Assembly: GCA_037574385.1 (NCBI GenBank)
Contig: GCA_037574385.1_4529.1
DNA length: 64,000 nucleotides
Strand: one strand, 5' to 3'
Source of the DNA: a phage
Shown here: piece by piece, positions 1,920 to 54,878 of the stretch
How the letters are laid out: each line of letters starts with the position of its first letter
How positions within the stretch are numbered: the first letter of the stretch is position 1
The notes under the pieces: model-generated
Database searches by the model: none
What the model was told of the DNA's origin: nothing
Seen by the model: only the letters and a program-made list of their open reading frames with translations
Made by a program: the position numbers and the translations under genes

Positions 1920-3362
1920 ATGATCGAATTAAAAAGTCTACCATACGTTGATGGCCCTCCTGATGAGGGTCAAAAACGTTTAAACTGGATTAAAAATTCA
2001 GAAGAAATAACTGGCGCTGATACGTTATACGGTTCTGAAGGAGTAATGAACCGTCCAATAACAGAAGTTCAACGAAATGTAGAAACAATTAACGATAACG
2101 TTAAGACTATCGCAGAATCTTTAGATACCGCTAATGCTGATATTGTCACAATTAAAAGTATCTTAGATGTTTCTGGTGATGTAGATGCTTTAGCACAAAT
2201 TGGACATAACACTGATGATATTGAAGTATTAAAACACACTGTAAATTCACACAGTGTTGATATTTTAAACACTGAAGAAAAACTAGATGATACTATTGCT
2301 AATATCGGAGTAGTTAATCCAGAAACAGATTCAGTGTATCGTACGGTGCGTAACGACCTTCTTTGGATTAAAACCGAATTAGGGCAATATACTGGGCAAG
2401 ATATTAATGGTGTCCCAACCGAAGGTAATGAAAGCACCGGCATGAAACGACGTATTATTACTAACAGCTCAGTGTTGGTTGACCAAGGCGTTCGTTTAAC
2501 TGAGTTAGAAAATAAATTTGCCGATTCTGATGTTGGGGCTCTGACAACCGAAGTTGAAAACCTCCGTCAAGAAATAGGTCCTAGACCATCGTTAACAGTA
2601 CCGGTTTACACTCGTTTATCCGGTATTGATTCATCCATTTCTATCCAAACTAGAGATATTGCGGCATTAAAAGATTTTGTTGGATATCCTAATTCAACCG
2701 CTATTAAAACTCAAGTCGAGGCCAATCGTCTTTCTATATCAACAATAAATTCAGACATTAACTCGCCTGGCGGTATTAAACCACGTTTGACAACGTTAGA
2801 AACTACTATAGGCTCCCCAGATTTACCAACTACTCTTCAGGGTAGGATCAAATTAAATACCGATTCCATTTCAGGTATTAACACAGTTTTAGGTGTTGAT
2901 TCTTCTAGTGGTTTACGTTTTAATGTAGCATGGCTTAATCAGGTGGTTGGCGTTGATTCAAATGGTGGACAACCCGAACCGGCTGGTTCACTTTTATATA
3001 GGACTCGTATTCTTGAAACTGGTGTTACTGACCTAGACAATAACATTCAAAACGTTCAAACCGAATTGGGAACTAATTCGTCAGGTATTAAAGGACAAGT
3101 AACTAGTTTAAATAAACTTATAAGCGGCACTAACCCAAATGGTCAAACCATAGAAGAACGTGGTATATTGCCAACAGTTAAAAACCATGACACAACAATT
3201 ATGGCTTTAACTACGCGTGTTACCACTTTAGAAACCGACCTTGCTGCAGCAGAAGCAGAAATTCAGGCCCTTAAAGAGGCTGGATATATTGAAGATGCTC
3301 CTTCAGACGGTAAATTCTATGTTCGCAAAGATGGTGCATGGGTTGAACTTCCTACAGCTTAA
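1920..3362 (+). CDS. wac: fibritin (whisker / neck fibre)
   Basis: 480 aa; C-terminal foldon GYIEDAPSDGKFYVRKDGAWVELPT; position after gene 12. Confidence 0.95.
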   Translation: MIELKSLPYVDGPPDEGQKRLNWIKNSEEITGADTLYGSEGVMNRPITEVQRNVETINDNVKTIAESLDTANADIVTIKSILDVSGDVDALAQIGHNTDDIEVLKHTVNSHSVDILNTEEKLDDTIANIGVVNPETDSVYRTVRNDLLWIKTELGQYTGQDINGVPTEGNESTGMKRRIITNSSVLVDQGVRLTELENKFADSDVGALTTEVENLRQEIGPRPSLTVPVYTRLSGIDSSISIQTRDIAALKDFVGYPNSTAIKTQVEANRLSISTINSDINSPGGIKPRLTTLETTIGSPDLPTTLQGRIKLNTDSISGINTVLGVDSSSGLRFNVAWLNQVVGVDSNGGQPEPAGSLLYRTRILETGVTDLDNNIQNVQTELGTNSSGIKGQVTSLNKLISGTNPNGQTIEERGILPTVKNHDTTIMALTTRVTTLETDLAAAEAEIQALKEAGYIEDAPSDGKFYVRKDGAWVELPTA

Positions 3363-4322: not shown

Positions 4323-5087
4323 ATGGCGACTTATGATAAAAATCTTTTCGCCAAACTAGAAAATCGCGGCGGGTATTCTCAGACAAATGAGACCGAAATC
4401 CTCAATCCATTTGTCAATTTTAATAACTATGAGAATAGTCAGACATTAGCTGATGTTCTAGTGGCAGAAAGCATACAAATGCGCGGTATTGAATGTTTTT
4501 ATGTTCCACGTGAATATGTTGCAGTGGATCTTATCTTTGGTGAGGACCTTAAAAATAAATTTACTAAAGCATGGAAATTTGCTGCGTATCTGAACTCTTT
4601 TGAAGGTTATGAAGGAGCGAAATCGTTCTTCAGCAACTTCGGAATGCAAGTTCAAGATGAAGTTACATTATCTATTAACCCAGGTCTTTTCAAACACCAG
4701 GTTAACAATCAGGAGCCTAAGGAAGGTGATTTAATATACTTCCCAATGGATAACAGTTTGTTTGAGATTAACTGGGTTGAACCATATGACCCATTCTATC
4801 AAGTAGGTAAAAATGCAATTCGTAAAATTACTGCAGGCAAGTTTATTTACTCTGGCGAAGAAATCAATCCGGTGCTTCAGAAAAATGAAGGTATCAATAT
4901 ACCTGAATTTAGTGACTTGGAACTTAACCCTGTTAGAAATCTTGACGGTATCCATGACATTAATATCGATGAATATTCTGAAGTTGAGCAAATCAATTCA
5001 GAGGCAAGTGAATACGTTGAGCCGTATGTAGTAGTTAACAACCGTGGTAGACAAAATTCACCATTTGACGATGGGTTTATGAATTAA
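4323..5087 (+). CDS. 14: neck protein gp14
   Basis: 254 aa, T4 gp14-like N-terminus [15 protein letters not shown]; synteny. Confidence 0.92.
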
Positions 5088-13892: not shown

Positions 13893-14705
13893 ATGATCAA
13901 AGAACAACTTTTGAAAGAAGCTCAGAATATCGAGACTTCAGTTGCTCTTAATAGTGTTTTCGAATCAGTAGAACTGTCTCCGGACGTTAAAGCTAATTTC
14001 AGCACTGTATTCGAAGCCACCGTTAAGCAGGAAGCAGTCAAACTTGCTGAATCTCATATCAAAGCCATCGCCGAAAAAGCCGAAGAAGAAGTTGAAAAGG
14101 CTAAAGAAGATGCTGAAGAGAAAGCTGATAAAAAATTGGCTGAACAAGCTTCTAAATTCCTGGACCATCTTGCAAAAGAATGGCTCGCAGAAAACCAAAT
14201 CGCAGTTGATAAAGGCATTAAAGCTGATTTGTTCGAATCCATGCTTGGTGGTCTGAAAGAACTGTTTGTTGAACATAACGTTGTTGTTCCAGAAGAATCT
14301 GTAGATGTTGTAGCAGAAATGGAAGAAGAGCTGGCCGAACATAAAGAAGAAACCGCTCGTTTGTTCGAAGAAGTTACCAAACGTGATGCATATATCAATT
14401 ACGTTCAGCGTGAAACCGCTATTAATGAAAGCGTGAAAGACCTGACTGAATCTCAGAAAGAAAAAGTTATTGGCCTGGTTGAAGGTATGGATTATTCTGA
14501 CGCATTTGGTACTAAGTTAACTGCTATTGTAGAAATGGTTAAAGGTTCTACTAAAGAAGAAGCCGCTATTACCGAAAGTATAAATACAGTTGACAATGAC
14601 GCTGCCGGTCTTAATTTTGTTGCCGAAGCAGTTGACACTACCACAACTCAGGTAGAACAGAATTCTAATGTAAGTTTATATGCGAAAGTCGCATCTCGTT
14701 TCTAA
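13893..14705 (+). CDS. 22: prohead scaffolding core protein gp22
   Basis: 270 aa, highly acidic coiled-coil protein; synteny. Confidence 0.92.
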   Translation: MIKEQLLKEAQNIETSVALNSVFESVELSPDVKANFSTVFEATVKQEAVKLAESHIKAIAEKAEEEVEKAKEDAEEKADKKLAEQASKFLDHLAKEWLAENQIAVDKGIKADLFESMLGGLKELFVEHNVVVPEESVDVVAEMEEELAEHKEETARLFEEVTKRDAYINYVQRETAINESVKDLTESQKEKVIGLVEGMDYSDAFGTKLTAIVEMVKGSTKEEAAITESINTVDNDAAGLNFVAEAVDTTTTQVEQNSNVSLYAKVASRF

Positions 14706-14722: not shown

Positions 14723-16291
14723 ATGACTACTATCAAAACTAAAGCTCAGCTCGTAGACAAATGGAAAGAACTGCTGGAAGGTGAAGGCCTGCCGGAAATC
14801 GCTAATAGCAAGCAGGCTATTATCGCTAAAATCTTCGAAAACCAGGAAAAAGATTTCGAAGTATCCCCTGAATATAAAGACGAGAAAATCGCTCAGGCAT
14901 TTGGTTCTTTCTTGACCGAAGCTGAAATTGGTGGTGACCACGGTTATAATGCTCAGAACATCGCAGCAGGTCAAACCTCTGGTGCAGTAACCCAGATTGG
15001 GCCAGCAGTTATGGGTATGGTTCGTCGTGCTATTCCTAATCTGATCGCTTTTGATATTTGTGGTGTTCAGCCTATGAACAGCCCTACCGGTCAGGTATTT
15101 GCTCTTCGTGCAGTATATGGTAAAGACCCTATCGCTGCTGGCGCTAAAGAAGCTTTCCATCCGATGTATGCTCCGGATGCAATGTTCTCTGGTCAGGGCG
15201 CTGCTAAGAAATTCCCGGCGTTGGCTGCTAGCACACAAACCGTTGTAGGTGATATCTATACTCACTTCTTCCAGGAAACTGGTACTGTATATCTGCAAGC
15301 TTCCGCTGTAGTAACAATCGATGCTAGTGCTAACGATGCAACTAAATTAGATGCTGAAATTAAGAAACAAATGGAAGCGGGTGTACTGGTAGAAATCGCT
15401 GAAGGTATGGCTACTTCTATTGCTGAACTTCAGGAAGGTTTCAACGGTTCTACTGATAACCCATGGAATGAAATGGGCTTCCGTATCGATAAACAAGTTA
15501 TCGAAGCTAAATCTCGCCAGCTGAAAGCTGCTTACTCTATCGAATTAGCACAAGACCTCCGTGCAGTACACGGTATGGATGCTGATGCTGAACTGAGCGG
15601 TATCCTGGCTACAGAAATTATGCTAGAAATCAACCGTGAAGTTGTTGACTGGATTAACTACTCTGCTCAGGTTGGTAAATCTGGTATGACCCTGACTCCG
15701 GGTTCTAAAGCTGGTGTATTTGACTTCCAGGACCCGATTGATATCCGTGGTGCTCGTTGGGCCGGTGAAAGCTTTAAATCTCTGTTGTTCCAGATTGATA
15801 AAGAAGCAGTTGAAATCGCTCGTCAAACCGGTCGTGGTGAAGGTAACTTCATTATCGCTTCCCGTAACGTAGTTAACGTACTGGCTTCAGTTGATACTGG
15901 TATTTCTTACGCTGCACAGGGTCTGGCTTCTGGTTTTAATACTGACACTACTAAGTCTGTATTTGCCGGTGTACTTGGTGGTAAATACCGCGTATACATC
16001 GACCAGTATGCTAAACAGGATTACTTCACCGTTGGTTATAAAGGCGCTAACGAAATGGATGCAGGTATTTACTATGCTCCTTACGTTGCACTTACCCCGC
16101 TGCGTGGTTCCGATCCTAAGAACTTCCAGCCGGTAATGGGCTTTAAAACTCGTTACGGTATCGGTGTTAACCCGTTTGCTGAAAGTTCCCTGCAGGCTCC
16201 AGGTGCTCGCATCCAGTCCGGTATGCCGTCTATCCTGAACAGCCTTGGTAAGAACGCTTACTTCCGCCGTGTATATGTAAAAGGCATCTAA
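14723..16291 (+). CDS. 23: major capsid protein gp23
   Basis: 522 aa; matches T4 gp23 (521 aa) as recalled. Confidence 0.97.
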   Translation: MTTIKTKAQLVDKWKELLEGEGLPEIANSKQAIIAKIFENQEKDFEVSPEYKDEKIAQAFGSFLTEAEIGGDHGYNAQNIAAGQTSGAVTQIGPAVMGMVRRAIPNLIAFDICGVQPMNSPTGQVFALRAVYGKDPIAAGAKEAFHPMYAPDAMFSGQGAAKKFPALAASTQTVVGDIYTHFFQETGTVYLQASAVVTIDASANDATKLDAEIKKQMEAGVLVEIAEGMATSIAELQEGFNGSTDNPWNEMGFRIDKQVIEAKSRQLKAAYSIELAQDLRAVHGMDADAELSGILATEIMLEINREVVDWINYSAQVGKSGMTLTPGSKAGVFDFQDPIDIRGARWAGESFKSLLFQIDKEAVEIARQTGRGEGNFIIASRNVVNVLASVDTGISYAAQGLASGFNTDTTKSVFAGVLGGKYRVYIDQYAKQDYFTVGYKGANEMDAGIYYAPYVALTPLRGSDPKNFQPVMGFKTRYGIGVNPFAESSLQAPGARIQSGMPSILNSLGKNAYFRRVYVKGI

Positions 16292-16315
16292 TCTTAATTG
16301 ATTAAATCTTATTTT

Positions 16316-16333
16316 GGGAGACTTCGGTCTCCC
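16316..16333 (+). terminator. intrinsic terminator GGGAGAC-UUCG-GUCUCCC + U-tract after gene 23
   Basis: 7-bp GC stem, UUCG loop, followed by AUUUUUGG. Confidence 0.8.
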
Positions 16334-16343
16334 ATTTTTGGTT

Positions 16344-16613
16344 TTATTTCTGGGCAATTTCGATGTAAGTTTTCAAAATATTTTGCCAATTAGGCATACC
16401 TTCTTGGACATATGCTGGAGAACCGTCTTTGTTTTTGAATGATGCAAGTTTATCAGTGGCCCAATAGCCTTTAGCTCGAGCTTCAGAATCAACTTTCATC
16501 CATACTTTGTTGAAGGCATTACCATTAACTTTTGCACCATATTTTTCTACTAACTTAACCGCTTCAGCTTCCAGAACTTTTAAAGTATCTCGTAAGAAAC
16601 GTGCTTTAGTCAT
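16344..16613 (-). CDS. hypothetical protein (89 aa), convergent to gene 23
   Basis: ORF preceded by early-type promoter and AGGAG RBS; sits at the 23/24 junction where T4 carries segD. Confidence 0.6.
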   Translation of the reverse strand: MTKARFLRDTLKVLEAEAVKLVEKYGAKVNGNAFNKVWMKVDSEARAKGYWATDKLASFKNKDGSPAYVQEGMPNWQNILKTYIEIAQK

Positions 16614-16643
16614 TTTGTTTACTCCTCTGTAGTTGATAAGTCT

Positions 16644-16673
16644 ATAGTATCACATACCAAATACGTTGTAAAC
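16644..16673 (-). promoter_or_regulatory. early-type sigma70 promoter (GTTTAC -35, TACTAT -10)
   Basis: Reads GTTTACA-N17/18-TACTATAGAC on the minus strand upstream of the 89-aa ORF. Confidence 0.55.
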
Positions 16674-16679
16674 AATCTT

Positions 16680-16687
16680 TATAAATA
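16680..16687 (+). promoter_or_regulatory. late promoter TATAAATA for gene 24
   Basis: Exact TATAAATA about 27 nt upstream of gp24 ATG. Confidence 0.7.
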
Positions 16688-16713: not shown

Positions 16714-17994
16714 ATGAGTAAAATCCAAAAATTATTGCGTGAATCTACAACGTCTACTAGCAACTCAATTGGTCGCCCAAATCTTGTTGCTTTGACTCGC
16801 GCTACGACTAAATTAATATATTCTGACATTGTGGCAACACAAAGAACTAATCAACCTGTTGCTGCTTTTTATGGTATTAAATATCTTAACCCAGACAACG
16901 AATTAACGTTTAAAACTGGTGCTACTTATGCCGGCGAAGTTGGATATGTAGACCGAGAAAAAATTACTGAACTCACAGAAGAATCAAAAGTCACACTAAA
17001 TAAAGGCGATTTTTTCAAATATAATAATATCGTCTATAAAGTGTTAGAAGATACACCATTTGCAGATATTCAAGAAAGTGATCTAGAATTAGCTCTTCAG
17101 ATTGCAGTCGTTCATTTAAAGGTACGGTTATTTTCAGATGCAGCGGTGACAAGCAAATTTGAAAGCTCTGGTAGCGAAATTTCTGATGCAAGATTCCAAA
17201 TTAATAAATGGCAAACTTCGGTCAAATCTCGTAAACTTAAAACCGGTCTCACGGTTGAATTAGCGCAAGATTTGGAAGCGAATGGATTTGATGCCCCTAA
17301 CTTCTTAGAAGATTTGCTTGCTACTGAAATGGCTGATGAAATTAATAAAGATATTCTTCAGTCTTTAATTACTGTATCGAAACGTTATAAAGTTACTGGA
17401 ATTACTGACACCGGATTTATTGACTTGAGCTATGCATCCGCTCCAGAAGCAGGTCGTTCGTTATATCGAATGGTGTGTGAAATGGTATCACACATTCAAA
17501 AAGAGTCAACTTATACTGCGACGTTTTGTGTAGCTTCAGCTCGTGCAGCTGCTATTCTTGCTGCTTCAGGTTGGTTAAAACATAAACCAGAAGATGATAA
17601 GTATCTTTCACAAAATGCTTACGGGTTCTTAGCTAATGGTTTACCGCTTTATTGCGATACTAACAGCCCATTAGATTATGTGATCGTTGGCGTAGTAGAA
17701 AATATCGGTGAAAAAGAAATTGTTGGATCAATTTTCTATGCCCCGTATACAGAAGGTCTCGACTTAGATGACCCGGAACATGTTGGTGCATTTAAAGTTG
17801 TAGTTGATCCAGAAAGCTTGCAACCGTCTATTGGTTTATTGGTTAGATACGCTTTATCTGCGAATCCTTACACAGTAGCAAAAGATGAAAAAGAAGCGAG
17901 AATAATTGATGGCGGGGACATGGATAAAATGGCGGGACGTTCGGACTTGTCTGTTTTACTTGGTGTTAAATTGCCTAAAATTATTATAGATTAA
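16714..17994 (+). CDS. 24: capsid vertex protein gp24
   Basis: 426 aa, gp23 paralogue; synteny. Confidence 0.95.
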   Translation: MSKIQKLLRESTTSTSNSIGRPNLVALTRATTKLIYSDIVATQRTNQPVAAFYGIKYLNPDNELTFKTGATYAGEVGYVDREKITELTEESKVTLNKGDFFKYNNIVYKVLEDTPFADIQESDLELALQIAVVHLKVRLFSDAAVTSKFESSGSEISDARFQINKWQTSVKSRKLKTGLTVELAQDLEANGFDAPNFLEDLLATEMADEINKDILQSLITVSKRYKVTGITDTGFIDLSYASAPEAGRSLYRMVCEMVSHIQKESTYTATFCVASARAAAILAASGWLKHKPEDDKYLSQNAYGFLANGLPLYCDTNSPLDYVIVGVVENIGEKEIVGSIFYAPYTEGLDLDDPEHVGAFKVVVDPESLQPSIGLLVRYALSANPYTVAKDEKEARIIDGGDMDKMAGRSDLSVLLGVKLPKIIID

Positions 17995-39111: not shown

Positions 39112-39129
39112 GGGAGACCGAAGTCTCCC
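39112..39129 (-). terminator. intrinsic terminator GGGAGAC-UUCG-GUCUCCC + CUUUUGUGUGUUU
   Basis: Hairpin 6 nt downstream of the 58-aa basic ORF stop on the minus strand. Confidence 0.8.
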
Positions 39130-53469: not shown

Positions 53470-53862
53470 CTACTTTTTAAAAGTTTTTTGCAAAAGTTTG
53501 ATGATTTCGTCGACGTTGGTTTCATCTACGATACAATGGATTTTTGTTACACCTAAAGTTATACCTTCGTTAGTAGGTTGAGGCTTTACTAAATCTACCT
53601 CAGTAAAGTATTTGAACTCGTCAGGATAAATCTCAAAATAAGTTTCAATTTCACCACCGGCAGAACATACAGTACCATCTTCCATAGTTACACTTACTAC
53701 GTTTGGCGTATCATTATCATAATCAGGTTCCATTCCGTTTACAACAAAACTAGGCCCATGGAGTTCAATCAATTTTAACATCTTAGCGTTATTGTGTGGT
53801 GCTTCTTGAACAAAGTCGTCTTTAAATAAAGGGTTAATGATATAAGATTTTCCGATTTCCAT
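53470..53862 (-). CDS. hypothetical protein (130 aa)
   Basis: ORF with early promoter cassette upstream. Confidence 0.6.
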   Translation of the reverse strand: MEIGKSYIINPLFKDDFVQEAPHNNAKMLKLIELHGPSFVVNGMEPDYDNDTPNVVSVTMEDGTVCSAGGEIETYFEIYPDEFKYFTEVDLVKPQPTNEGITLGVTKIHCIVDETNVDEIIKLLQKTFKK

Positions 53863-53951
53863 TTTGATTTCCTCATGTTGTTGATAAGTCTATACTAACA
53901 CATCCAGGGAAGAAGTAAACAACTTTTTCGGTAATTTACAGATACTCAAAA

Positions 53952-53969
53952 GGGAGACCGAAGTCTCCC
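53952..53969 (-). terminator. intrinsic terminator GGGAGAC-UUCG-GUCUCCC + CUUUUGAG after gene 32
   Basis: Hairpin 6 nt downstream of gp32 stop on the minus strand. Confidence 0.8.
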
Positions 53970-53975
53970 GATTTA

Positions 53976-54878
53976 TTATAGACCGGCTAACAGGTCATCG
54001 AGGTCACCATCATCAGAGGATGAGGTAGAGCTCATGAAGTCATCTTCAGTTTTTGCAGAACTAAAGGCTTCCATGTCTTTATCAAAATCGTCAAGGTCAG
54101 AAGCAACTTTATCTGCAACAGAAGCTGCTGCGGCTGCTGCACCACCAAGAGCGGCAGTACCAAGAACCTTAGCGAAAGATTCATTTAATTTTTCAAAAGA
54201 TTTGAACTGGTCTTTAGCCGTCAAAGTAGTAAGGTCTACCATCTGGTCATACAGTTCTTTCTGGAATGCTTCGTCATTAATACGAGGAATTTCAGATTGA
54301 CCCAAGAATTTAGATTCGTCATAGTTGCTAAAACCGGAAACCTGCTTAGCTTTCAGAACGAAGTTAGCACCTTCAAACGGACAAGTAACATCAACTGGAG
54401 TTTCACCCATTTCGGTATCAACAGCAATCATTGCATTGATTTTGTCCCAAATCTTTTTACCGAAACGATATTTAAATACTTTACCTTCGTTATCTGGAGC
54501 TTGAGGGTCTTTAACAACCAGAATATTAGCCCAATAGGAAGTTTTACGTTTCAGTTGAGAATATTCAGTTTTGTTGGTATTGTACAGGTCATTTTTACTA
54601 ATGTACTGACATACAGGACAAGAGTCGTAATCACCATGTGTAGAAGAGCAATTTTCAATATACCATTTACCATTTTTCTTGAAACCGTGGTTAACAAGAA
54701 TTGCAAATGGTAGTGCATCATCAGTTTTTGCTGGCAAGAAACGAATTACCGCTTGACCATTACCTGATGCATCTAGCTTCAGCTTCCATTCGCCTTTATC
54801 TTCTGAAGAGAAACCTTTGTTACCGTTCAGTTTAGCCATTTGAGCAGCGAGGTCAGCAGTAGATTTACGTTTAAACAT
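53976..54878 (-). CDS. 32: single-stranded DNA-binding protein gp32
   Basis: 300 aa; zinc-binding Cys/His cluster and acidic C-terminus as T4 gp32. Confidence 0.97.

Follow-up and report, generated by a model that had tools for sequence, protein, structure and literature searches.

An 89-codon gene with an early-type promoter between capsid genes 23 and 24 of T-even phages: a probable accessory cassette of unassigned function

Introduction

Morons, described by Hendrix and colleagues in lambdoid and other tailed phages, are autonomous units of promoter, open reading frame (ORF) and terminator located between structural genes; in the classical case, expression is from a prophage and is often of benefit to the lysogen. 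In T4, the junction between genes 23 and 24 is occupied by segD, the gene of a free-standing GIY-YIG homing endonuclease. Elsewhere, T4 encodes small prereplicative effectors such as AsiA, a protein of ~90 aa that binds sigma-70, and MotB, which is associated with DNA/H-NS (PMC7827196). For the T4-type phages as a whole, promoter-early stem-loop (PeSL) cassettes have been proposed to mediate the modular shuffling of small ORFs (Arbiol et al. 2010, PMC2839356; Comeau et al. 2014, PMC4122927). PeSL elements within the conserved core are said to go with plastic, non-essential adaptive genes, and elements of this type are reported to be rarer in regions encoding conserved virion structural genes (PMC2839356; PMC4122927). 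Their T-even consensus is TTTACW-N17-TAYWAT (PMC4122927).

Here we analyze an 89-codon ORF located between gene 23 and gene 24 of a T-even phage, on the strand opposite to both, within a 64-kb stretch of DNA hereafter called the window (Table 1). Like a moron, this ORF has its own predicted host-type promoter, is bounded by a hairpin, and lies between two structural genes, while the relatives RB6 and Roth04 carry an uninterrupted junction and homologues in other phages show a stand-alone layout. Unlike the classical case, the phage is strictly virulent, so that the ORF would be expressed early in the lytic cycle. The ORF also resembles T4 segD in its junction, its antisense orientation, and the position of its promoter (with one mismatch in T4), but SegD is a GIY-YIG protein of ~220 aa to which the 89-aa protein is unrelated. 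Finally, AsiA and MotB offer a "works like" analogy through their size class, the predicted early expression and non-enzymatic look of the 89-aa protein, and the apparent laboratory dispensability of its gene, although no sequence or fold similarity was detected. Taken together, we consider that this unit is probably an autonomous, non-essential accessory cassette of the moron/PeSL type, set between the terminator of gene 23 and the late promoter of gene 24. The gene is already catalogued, and is an ordinary accessory cassette of "unknown function" rather than a new kind of system.

Table 1. Features of the 23/24 junction and of the related module at 53.9 kb (window coordinates)
Feature	Position	Strand	Basis or remark
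Gene 23, major capsid protein	14723..16291	+	ORF list, annotation of near-identical phages
Gene 23 intrinsic terminator	16315..16340	+	GGGAGAC-UUCG-GUCUCCC followed by U-run; stem-loop 16315-16334
89-aa gene	16344..16613	-	RB69ORF188c/189c orthologue, phrog_6003; ATG start, 89 codons, stop TAA at 16344-16346 (ORF list); 10.1 kDa, pI 9.6
5' UTR, predicted	16614..16643	-	With the end of the -10 element contains the 15-mer TATAGACTTATCAAC (16632-16646)
Shine-Dalgarno AGGAG	16622..16626	-	8 nt upstream of the ATG of the 89-aa ORF
T4-type early (host sigma-70) promoter, predicted	16644..16673	-	Promoter scan, motif class, conservation; -35 GTTTAC 16668-16673, extended -10 TG 16651-16652, -10 TACTAT 16644-16649
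Late promoter TATAAATA of gene 24	16680..16687	+	Pattern search
Gene 24, capsid vertex protein	16714..17994	+	ORF list, annotation of near-identical phages
Sister PeSL-type module	53860..53969	-	Gene 32 terminator stem-loop, then early promoter and 5' UTR

Results and discussion

A conserved protein gene within the late capsid cluster

A first-pass annotation of this DNA had proposed that a gene of 89 codons lies on the opposite strand within the late capsid cluster, with an early-type GTTTAC/TACTAT promoter and an AGGAG ribosome-binding site, and each of these elements was recovered (Table 1). The protein matched phrog_6003 across its entire length (E=2.1e-45, residues 1-89 on profile positions 1-90 of 90). 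When the protein was searched with tblastn, 240 phage records were obtained, including 238 that were covered over at least 80% and counted as intact. These fell into ~120 Mosigvirus records with 95-100% identity to the 89-aa protein and ~119 records with 30-38% identity, the latter range including the Dhakavirus and Gaprivervirus homologues that share this site. An M-x-K-x-x-F N-terminus and the overall length were kept in every homologue. The window's protein was 100% identical to the one of phage PhAPEC2, with 0 non-synonymous changes and a pS of 0.054 between the two genes, and Nei-Gojobori dN/dS ratios ranged from 0.08 to 0.10 in two pairs with unsaturated synonymous sites (WG01/AV115 and WG01/IME08) and from 0.12 to 0.14 in more diverged ones. 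Since the ORF is intact in 238 of the 240 records and dN/dS is low, it is not a chance ORF, and these sequence comparisons identify it as a genuine protein gene under purifying selection.

This gene is annotated as "hypothetical protein" in >200 genomes, and named members of the family include RB69ORF188c/RB69ORF189c, PhAPEC2 gp220, IME08 orf166, and VR7ORF190c. It is thus a "known unknown", one among dozens of small early ORFs per T-even genome. A literature full-text search for the name "RB69ORF188c" returned no match. Emp, an early protein of the Mosigvirus AV110 (doi 10.64898/2026.09.14.751387), is probably the product of a different gene, as the terms "capsid" and "89 aa" are never used in the 2026 preprint that describes it.

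A foreign base composition could be rejected, as the GC content of the ORF (36.3%, vs 38.1% in the window) is ordinary for this genome, and no paralogue was found within the window. Among 1.84 billion representatives scanned exhaustively with HMMER, only nine matched the family, which is therefore narrow. Two candidate homologues, the giant Big_2/Ig-repeat proteins P0022 and P0024, were discarded as repeat-sum artefacts: their matches consisted of 9-11 weak repeats, and the predicted fold of the 89-aa protein is not Ig-like. In addition, the contig of candidate P0020 carries a Dhakavirus fragment and looks chimeric.

An early-type promoter back-to-back with a late promoter

A generic promoter scan reads the region upstream of the 89-aa gene as TTTACA-17-TACTAT with an extended TG. 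The motif GTTTAC-N15-TGnTAnnAT occurs in five exact copies in the 64-kb window, all on the minus (early) strand, and with up to one mismatch it yields seven matches vs 0.72 expected from shuffled sequences. This enrichment indicates that the site is a member of a genuine class of promoters in this genome, one which matches the T4 early consensus. The promoter of the 89-aa gene thus has the sequence of the early class, i.e., the class used by unmodified host sigma-70 polymerase, and judging from this sequence the gene would be transcribed within the first minutes of infection.

An early promoter motif precedes the homologue in all T-even loci compared except VR20, where the upstream region reads GTTTAC...CATAAT without TG. 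Versions of the motif with one mismatch were found in T4 and in contigs L012 and L013, and the sequence GAGGAG upstream of the ORF is kept in both the Mosigvirus and the Dhakavirus rows of the alignment. On the other strand, the late promoter TATAAATA of gene 24 stands back-to-back with this early promoter, 6 nt away from the -35 hexamer, and is invariant in an alignment of seven junctions. A pattern search for the same late motif on the strand of the 89-aa ORF near the locus found none. Nolan et al. 2006, in their supplements, had already predicted three elements of this junction for RB69: the early promoter as Pe:109605(-), the late one as Pl:109573(+), and the terminator as "23-><-RB69ORF188c".

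Elements repeated in the genome and their relation to PeSL cassettes

Stem-loops of the form GGGAGAC-NNNN-GTCTCCC were detected three times in the window (at 16316, 39112-39129, and 53952-53969) vs 0.05 expected. The last of these, identical to the gene 23 stem-loop, is the gene 32 terminator in a sister module at 53.9 kb (Table 1), which drives a 130-aa ORF assigned to phrog_622. A blastn self-match links the promoter and 5' UTR of the 89-aa gene to this second copy (79% identity over 71 nt), and the 15-mer TATAGACTTATCAAC is found as an exact match at two sites of the window, 16632-16646 and 53880-53894; looser matches to this 15-mer in the window were not enriched over shuffles.

Several characteristics of the 23/24 junction are those of a PeSL. 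The promoter fits TTTACW-N17-TAYWAT and is followed by a Shine-Dalgarno sequence and start codon (AGGAG-8 nt-ATG), the GC-rich UUCG stem-loop and the promoter are both repeated elsewhere in this genome, and what they flank is a non-essential small ORF whose junction varies among related phages, with insertion, deletion, and replacement states and, in phage AV115, breakpoints at the ORF boundaries. Unlike the canonical arrangement, where the stem-loop immediately precedes the promoter, as it does in the sister module, the stem-loop at the 23/24 junction is downstream of the 89-aa ORF, and the promoter abuts the late promoter of gene 24. Because these elements bracket the ORF instead of preceding it, the junction is not a PeSL in the strict sense; by analogy, the exchange mechanism suggested for PeSL cassettes is nevertheless plausible here.

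A small basic protein with a confidently predicted fold

Proteins of this family are typically basic (pI 9.2-9.9 for 13 of 14 members), and the one encoded in the window is hydrophilic. An AlphaFold2 model of the latter, built from a 14-sequence alignment (pLDDT 91.3, pTM 0.75), displayed two helices (residues 3-25 and 31-48), a beta-hairpin (52-60/66-70), and a third helix (76-88). The same topology was obtained when P0021, a homologue with 35% identity, was modelled independently (pLDDT 94.5), and the 89-aa model could be superposed on that of a Dhaka-type member in BFVD (TM score 0.84). The product is thus confidently predicted to be a three-helix bundle with a protruding beta-hairpin. Residues M1, K3, F6, G31, N32, N35, and Q70 are invariant across the family, with N30, L14, L21, A45, and S57 nearly so. 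These include a polar conserved set (N30-G31-N32, N35, and Q70) displayed on a small scaffold, and there is no obvious constellation of catalytic residues among the conserved positions.

Domain searches gave no Pfam match above threshold for any of the 14 members, including none to GIY-YIG. The closest candidate, DUF4859, was rejected: it matched two of the 14 members and reached 17.9 bits (E=0.003) for the 89-aa protein, below a cut-off of 22.6. Profile searches against the PDB, PADLOC, and NCBIfam returned noise only, and no characterised defence or anti-defence protein in the libraries searched matched the 89-aa protein in sequence or fold. The profile, domain, and fold searches are thereby in agreement with the initial view of this product as a protein unrelated to SegD and with no assigned function. 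An identity as an acidic DNA mimic of the Ocr/Arn type was also rejected, because the family is basic.

Based on these features, we propose that the protein may lack catalytic machinery and act stoichiometrically. From its net charge and size, it may bind an acidic host macromolecule, i.e., a nucleic acid, a nucleic-acid-associated protein, or a defence protein, and the benefit it provides would depend on the host (host takeover or counter-defence) and be dispensable on laboratory hosts. A role in host takeover or anti-defence, which the first-pass annotation had put forward, is thus plausible as a category, with support from context and not from homology. If the target of the protein was found, it would add one more mechanism of host takeover or counter-defence.

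Homologues outside of the T-even phages

Beyond T-even phages, homologues were found in two other genomic backgrounds. P0021, P0025, P0026, and the protein of phage ABPH49, which is classified in Vequintavirinae, are all encoded inside long arrays of co-directional ORFs of 40-160 aa without Pfam matches, and we interpret these arrays as the early accessory regions of large myoviruses. P0023 is encoded on a siphovirus-like contig with a distant relationship to Serratia phages; upstream of its gene lie a terminator and a TTGACG-17-TATATT promoter (with TG), and downstream of it lies a hairpin. Contig L007 displays a similar promoter-ORF-hairpin layout around its homologue. Although distant members of the family, P0021 and P0023 also match phrog_6003. 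Neither capsid nor endonuclease genes were found next to the Vequintavirinae-like and siphovirus-like homologues. In every background, the gene looks small and accessory, and in contigs L007 and L008 at least it has the appearance, from its flanking sequence, of a unit with its own promoter.

This distribution also invites a more ambitious reading, which we regard as possible and put forward tentatively. The 89-aa protein, with its three-helix and beta-hairpin fold, invariant N-G-N...N...Q surface, and basic charge, may found a structurally distinct, new-fold family of early effectors, common through horizontal transfer to T-even, rV5-like (Vequintavirinae), and siphovirus-type enterobacterial phages, that neutralises a specific host defence or takes over a nucleic-acid-associated target of the host, and whose placement in the capsid cluster of T-even phages would ensure co-inheritance with essential genes.

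Four states of the 23/24 junction and exchange between genera

The 601 bases around the 89-aa gene are at least 99% identical to those of many Mosigvirus (RB69-like T-even phages), e.g., OLB35, PhAPEC2, and ST0. Across T-even phages, the 23/24 junction was observed in four states: empty, with the ORF, with the ORF and segD, and with segD alone. Homologues of the 89-aa protein are encoded at this junction, on the opposite strand, in PhAPEC2, RB69, VR20 (Gaprivervirus), WG01 and IME08 (both Dhakavirus), AV115 (Mosigvirus), and four metagenomic T-even contigs. The empty junction is 81-83 bp long in RB6 (Tequatrovirus) and Klebsiella phage Roth04, where it consists of the terminator and TATAAATA alone. 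Both the early-promoter motif and the ORF are absent from these two junctions, and promoter and ORF are therefore gained or lost together.

In T4 and T6, segD is found in the same orientation without the 89-aa ORF, in line with the first-pass annotation, which had placed segD at this site in T4. A 2010 review stated that no segD-specific promoter is identifiable in T4 (PMC2988022). We found ATTTAC-N15-TGATATTAT upstream of T4 segD, one mismatch away from the early motif, so that, contrary to this review, T4 segD may have a recognisable and slightly degenerate early promoter.

Evidence for exchange is clearest in AV115. This phage is 95.5% identical to the window up to the stop codon of the ORF and 93.6% identical from just upstream of its start, and between these boundaries it carries a replacement made of a Dhaka-type ORF and segD. 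The two parts of this block are 92% and 89% identical to IME08, whereas the flanking genes 23 and 24 are only 81% and 69% identical to that phage. As read from these alignments, AV115 is one clear inter-genus cassette swap. Contig L012 presents the reverse association: its gp23 and gp24 (82% and 71% identical to the window) have a Dhaka-like divergence, and its ORF is of the RB69 type (62%). Together, the AV115 and L012 patterns indicate two old allele types whose circulation is somewhat uncoupled from the phage backbone. Inter-genus identity is 33-37% for the ORF vs 84% for gp23 and 70% for gp24.

We propose that homologous recombination through the highly conserved gene 23 and gene 24 flanks and the PeSL-like repeats would both keep the cassette at this site and swap it, and that where segD is present, co-conversion would swap the cassette as well. 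Exchange at the junction is better explained by this combination of flank/PeSL recombination and segD-linked co-conversion than by recent arrival. The site had been described in the first-pass annotation as an insertion hotspot, which holds for its variability (four states and the AV115 swap) but not for a recent arrival of the gene, which is found at this site in three genera, its two allele types being 30-38% identical to each other. More broadly, this locus is a case in which PeSL-type repeats and a seg endonuclease would jointly remodel even the conserved capsid cluster.

Damaged copies of the gene also exist. The RB69 locus is 97% identical to the window at the DNA level, and in the RB69 reference +1 and -1 indels leave the gene in two fragments, RB69ORF189c (29 aa) and RB69ORF188c (41 aa). 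In phage mogra and in one metagenomic contig, an A5 run of the gene has lost 1 nt, and phage 310Ecol104PP carries a truncated/frameshifted Dhaka-type copy. Frameshifts in relatives had been named at the outset as evidence that would speak against the gene; such frameshifts are confined to a small minority of phages, namely the RB69 reference, mogra, and 310Ecol104PP. They could be homopolymer sequencing errors. If genuine, these database frameshifts, along with the absence of the gene from T4, RB6, and Klebsiella T4-likes, suggest that it is dispensable for propagation. The gene would make a test case of some value: it forms a one-gene unit under its own promoter, and it has candidate natural knock-outs (RB69 reference and mogra), two deeply diverged alleles swapped between genera, and homologues in three phage lineages.

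Alternative roles at the junction

The accessory cassette has to be weighed against three other explanations, each of which we consider less likely: a SegD helper, a head morphogenesis factor, and a regulatory or antisense element. In the first, the 89-aa gene would be tied to SegD as the first of the two genes of a mobile operon, to which it supplies the promoter, perhaps with a modulating or protecting role, and the copy in the window would be a remnant. This fits the organization of AV115 and IME08, where segD begins 3 nt past the stop of the small ORF on the same strand without a promoter of its own in between, the movement of the ORF and segD between genera as one block, the one-mismatch promoter copy kept directly before segD in T4, and the presence of this segD type in ~38 phage records at 80% identity or more. 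Yet the ORF is found without segD in ~120 Mosigvirus records and most Dhakavirus and Gaprivervirus records, purifying selection acts on it in these segD-less lineages, segD occurs without the ORF in T4 and T6, and the Vequintavirinae-like and siphovirus-like homologues have no endonuclease neighbour, all of which makes a link to SegD improbable.

Equally improbable, in our assessment, is a role of the protein in head morphogenesis, e.g., as a chaperone or regulator of gp23/gp24. That the gene has long resided at one site in three genera could speak against a cassette and for a function linked to the neighbouring genes, and the strict gene 23-gene 24 synteny of the ORF in Mosigvirus, Dhakavirus, Gaprivervirus, and several metagenomic T-even contigs would be explained in this way. 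This synteny is expected anyway, however, because exchange runs through the conserved flanks. Moreover, the gene is on the opposite strand with an early-type instead of a late promoter, is missing from T4, T6, RB6, and Klebsiella T4-likes despite close gp23/gp24 homologues, and is frameshifted in the RB69 reference and the mogra record. Similarly, gp23 and gp24 of AV115 are 98-99% identical to those of the window while its ORF is only 31% identical, and distant homologues are not located beside capsid genes.

The last explanation draws in part on the far end of the gene, which the first-pass annotation had taken to be bounded by the gene 23 terminator. This stands for the hairpin itself, which begins 10 nt beyond the stop codon of the ORF, and whose stem is also predicted to form in minus-strand RNA (-13.5 kcal/mol, z=-5.9). 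On the strand of the ORF, the stem-loop is followed by AAAAUAAGAUUU and not by a U-run. The hairpin thus bounds the 89-aa gene physically, and is a candidate end for the 89-aa transcript. No other terminator-like site was found on the minus strand down to position 14000, and, with the U-run missing from this strand, antisense read-through into gene 23 is possible. It could therefore be argued that the functional element is DNA or RNA, either an antisense "anti-late" RNA over the 3' end of gene 23 or an insulation of the gene 24 late promoter, with an incidental or decaying ORF, as the back-to-back early and late promoters and the frameshifted copies might suggest; but a dN/dS of ~0.1 and the conservation of start, ribosome-binding site, and length across 30-100% identity point to selection on the protein, two divergent members share a confident and conserved predicted fold, homologues are found in unrelated genomic contexts, and an Rfam search at the locus gave nothing meaningful and no family match, so that we rank this explanation as the least likely of all. 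On the far side of the junction, gene 24 is itself followed by an opposite-strand gene, the one for RNA ligase 2.

Early-promoter units at the segD- and segG-equivalent sites

For the region downstream of gene 32, we detected on the minus strand a stem-loop that precedes an early promoter with its 5'UTR, an arrangement that, judged from its sequence, is a canonical PeSL-type (promoter-early stem-loop) unit. The gene 32 terminator stem-loop has the same sequence as the gene 23 terminator stem in the window, while the early promoter and 5'UTR share 79% identity over 71 nt with those of the 89-aa gene located between genes 23 and 24. In T4, the equivalent post-gene 32 site carries segG, in parallel to the homing endonuclease gene segD after gene 23. 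Directly upstream of the T4 segD, we also identified a sequence with a single mismatch to the early-promoter motif (GTTTAC-N15-TGnTAnnAT), in a position homologous to that of the 89-aa gene promoter; according to a 2010 review (PMC2988022), no segD-specific promoter could be found in T4.

Promoter and stem-loop features in the window and in T4
Feature	Location	Strand	Remark
GGGAGAC-NNNN-GTCTCCC stem-loop	39112-39129		third exact copy in the window; UUCG on minus strand
130-aa ORF (phrog_622)	53470-53862	-	function unknown; putatively driven by the PeSL-type unit promoter
Predicted PeSL-type regulatory unit	53860-53969	-	stem-loop, then early promoter and 5'UTR
Gene 32	53976-54878	-	its terminator stem-loop opens the PeSL-type unit
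ATTTAC-N15-TGATATTAT	T4 (L006, NC_000866) 2506-2535	-	directly upstream of segD

Cassette exchange and disrupted copies

Although AV115 is a Mosigvirus, its block comprising the small ORF and segD is of the Dhakavirus type: the block (L004, 1827-2756) is ~90% identical to that of the Dhakavirus IME08 (L005, 1783-2739), whereas its flanks reach only 69–81% identity to IME08. These identity levels mark the AV115 block as a clear case of inter-genus cassette transfer. A segD of this AV115/IME08 type was found at ≥80% identity in about 38 phage records.

Disrupted copies of the 89-aa gene were found in RB69, phage mogra, and a metagenomic contig. In RB69 (L011, NC_004928; 9292-9532, i.e., 109291-109531 of the record), the orthologue is split into ORF189c and ORF188c by two indels: one of +1 close to codon 20, where substitutions also cluster, and one of −1 close to codon 70. 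Either the laboratory strain carries a true pseudogene, or the original RB69 reference sequence contains errors. In mogra (L023, MN850579; 288-556), deletion of 1 nt from an A5 homopolymer causes a frameshift, and the annotation of the gene shows two ORFs, of 38 and 51 aa. The identical lesion is present in an independent metagenomic contig (L022), which argues that it is real rather than a sequencing error.

Annotation and neighboring genes

A 2026 bioRxiv preprint (10.64898/2026.09.14.751387) concerns early-expressed proteins of Mosigvirus AV110 (Emp, an elongasome-modulating peptide); it may include expression or toxicity data extending to the 89-aa gene. One 90-aa homologue (P0006) is named "NADPH-dependent curcumin reductase CurA" by a single source (JGI), an evident misannotation in view of the protein's size and of its position between genes 23 and 24.

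Gene 24 is duplicated in tandem (24a/24b) at five comparison loci (L002, L003, L005, L012, and L014) from Dhakavirus, Gaprivervirus, and related contigs, while Mosigvirus and T4 encode a single copy. Finally, just downstream of the homologue on one contig (L007), ~90 nt (4657-4749) display 85–99% identity to many Erwinia, Salmonella, and other phages, with no match detected for the remainder of that contig; this segment may encode a tRNA or serve as a conserved regulatory element.
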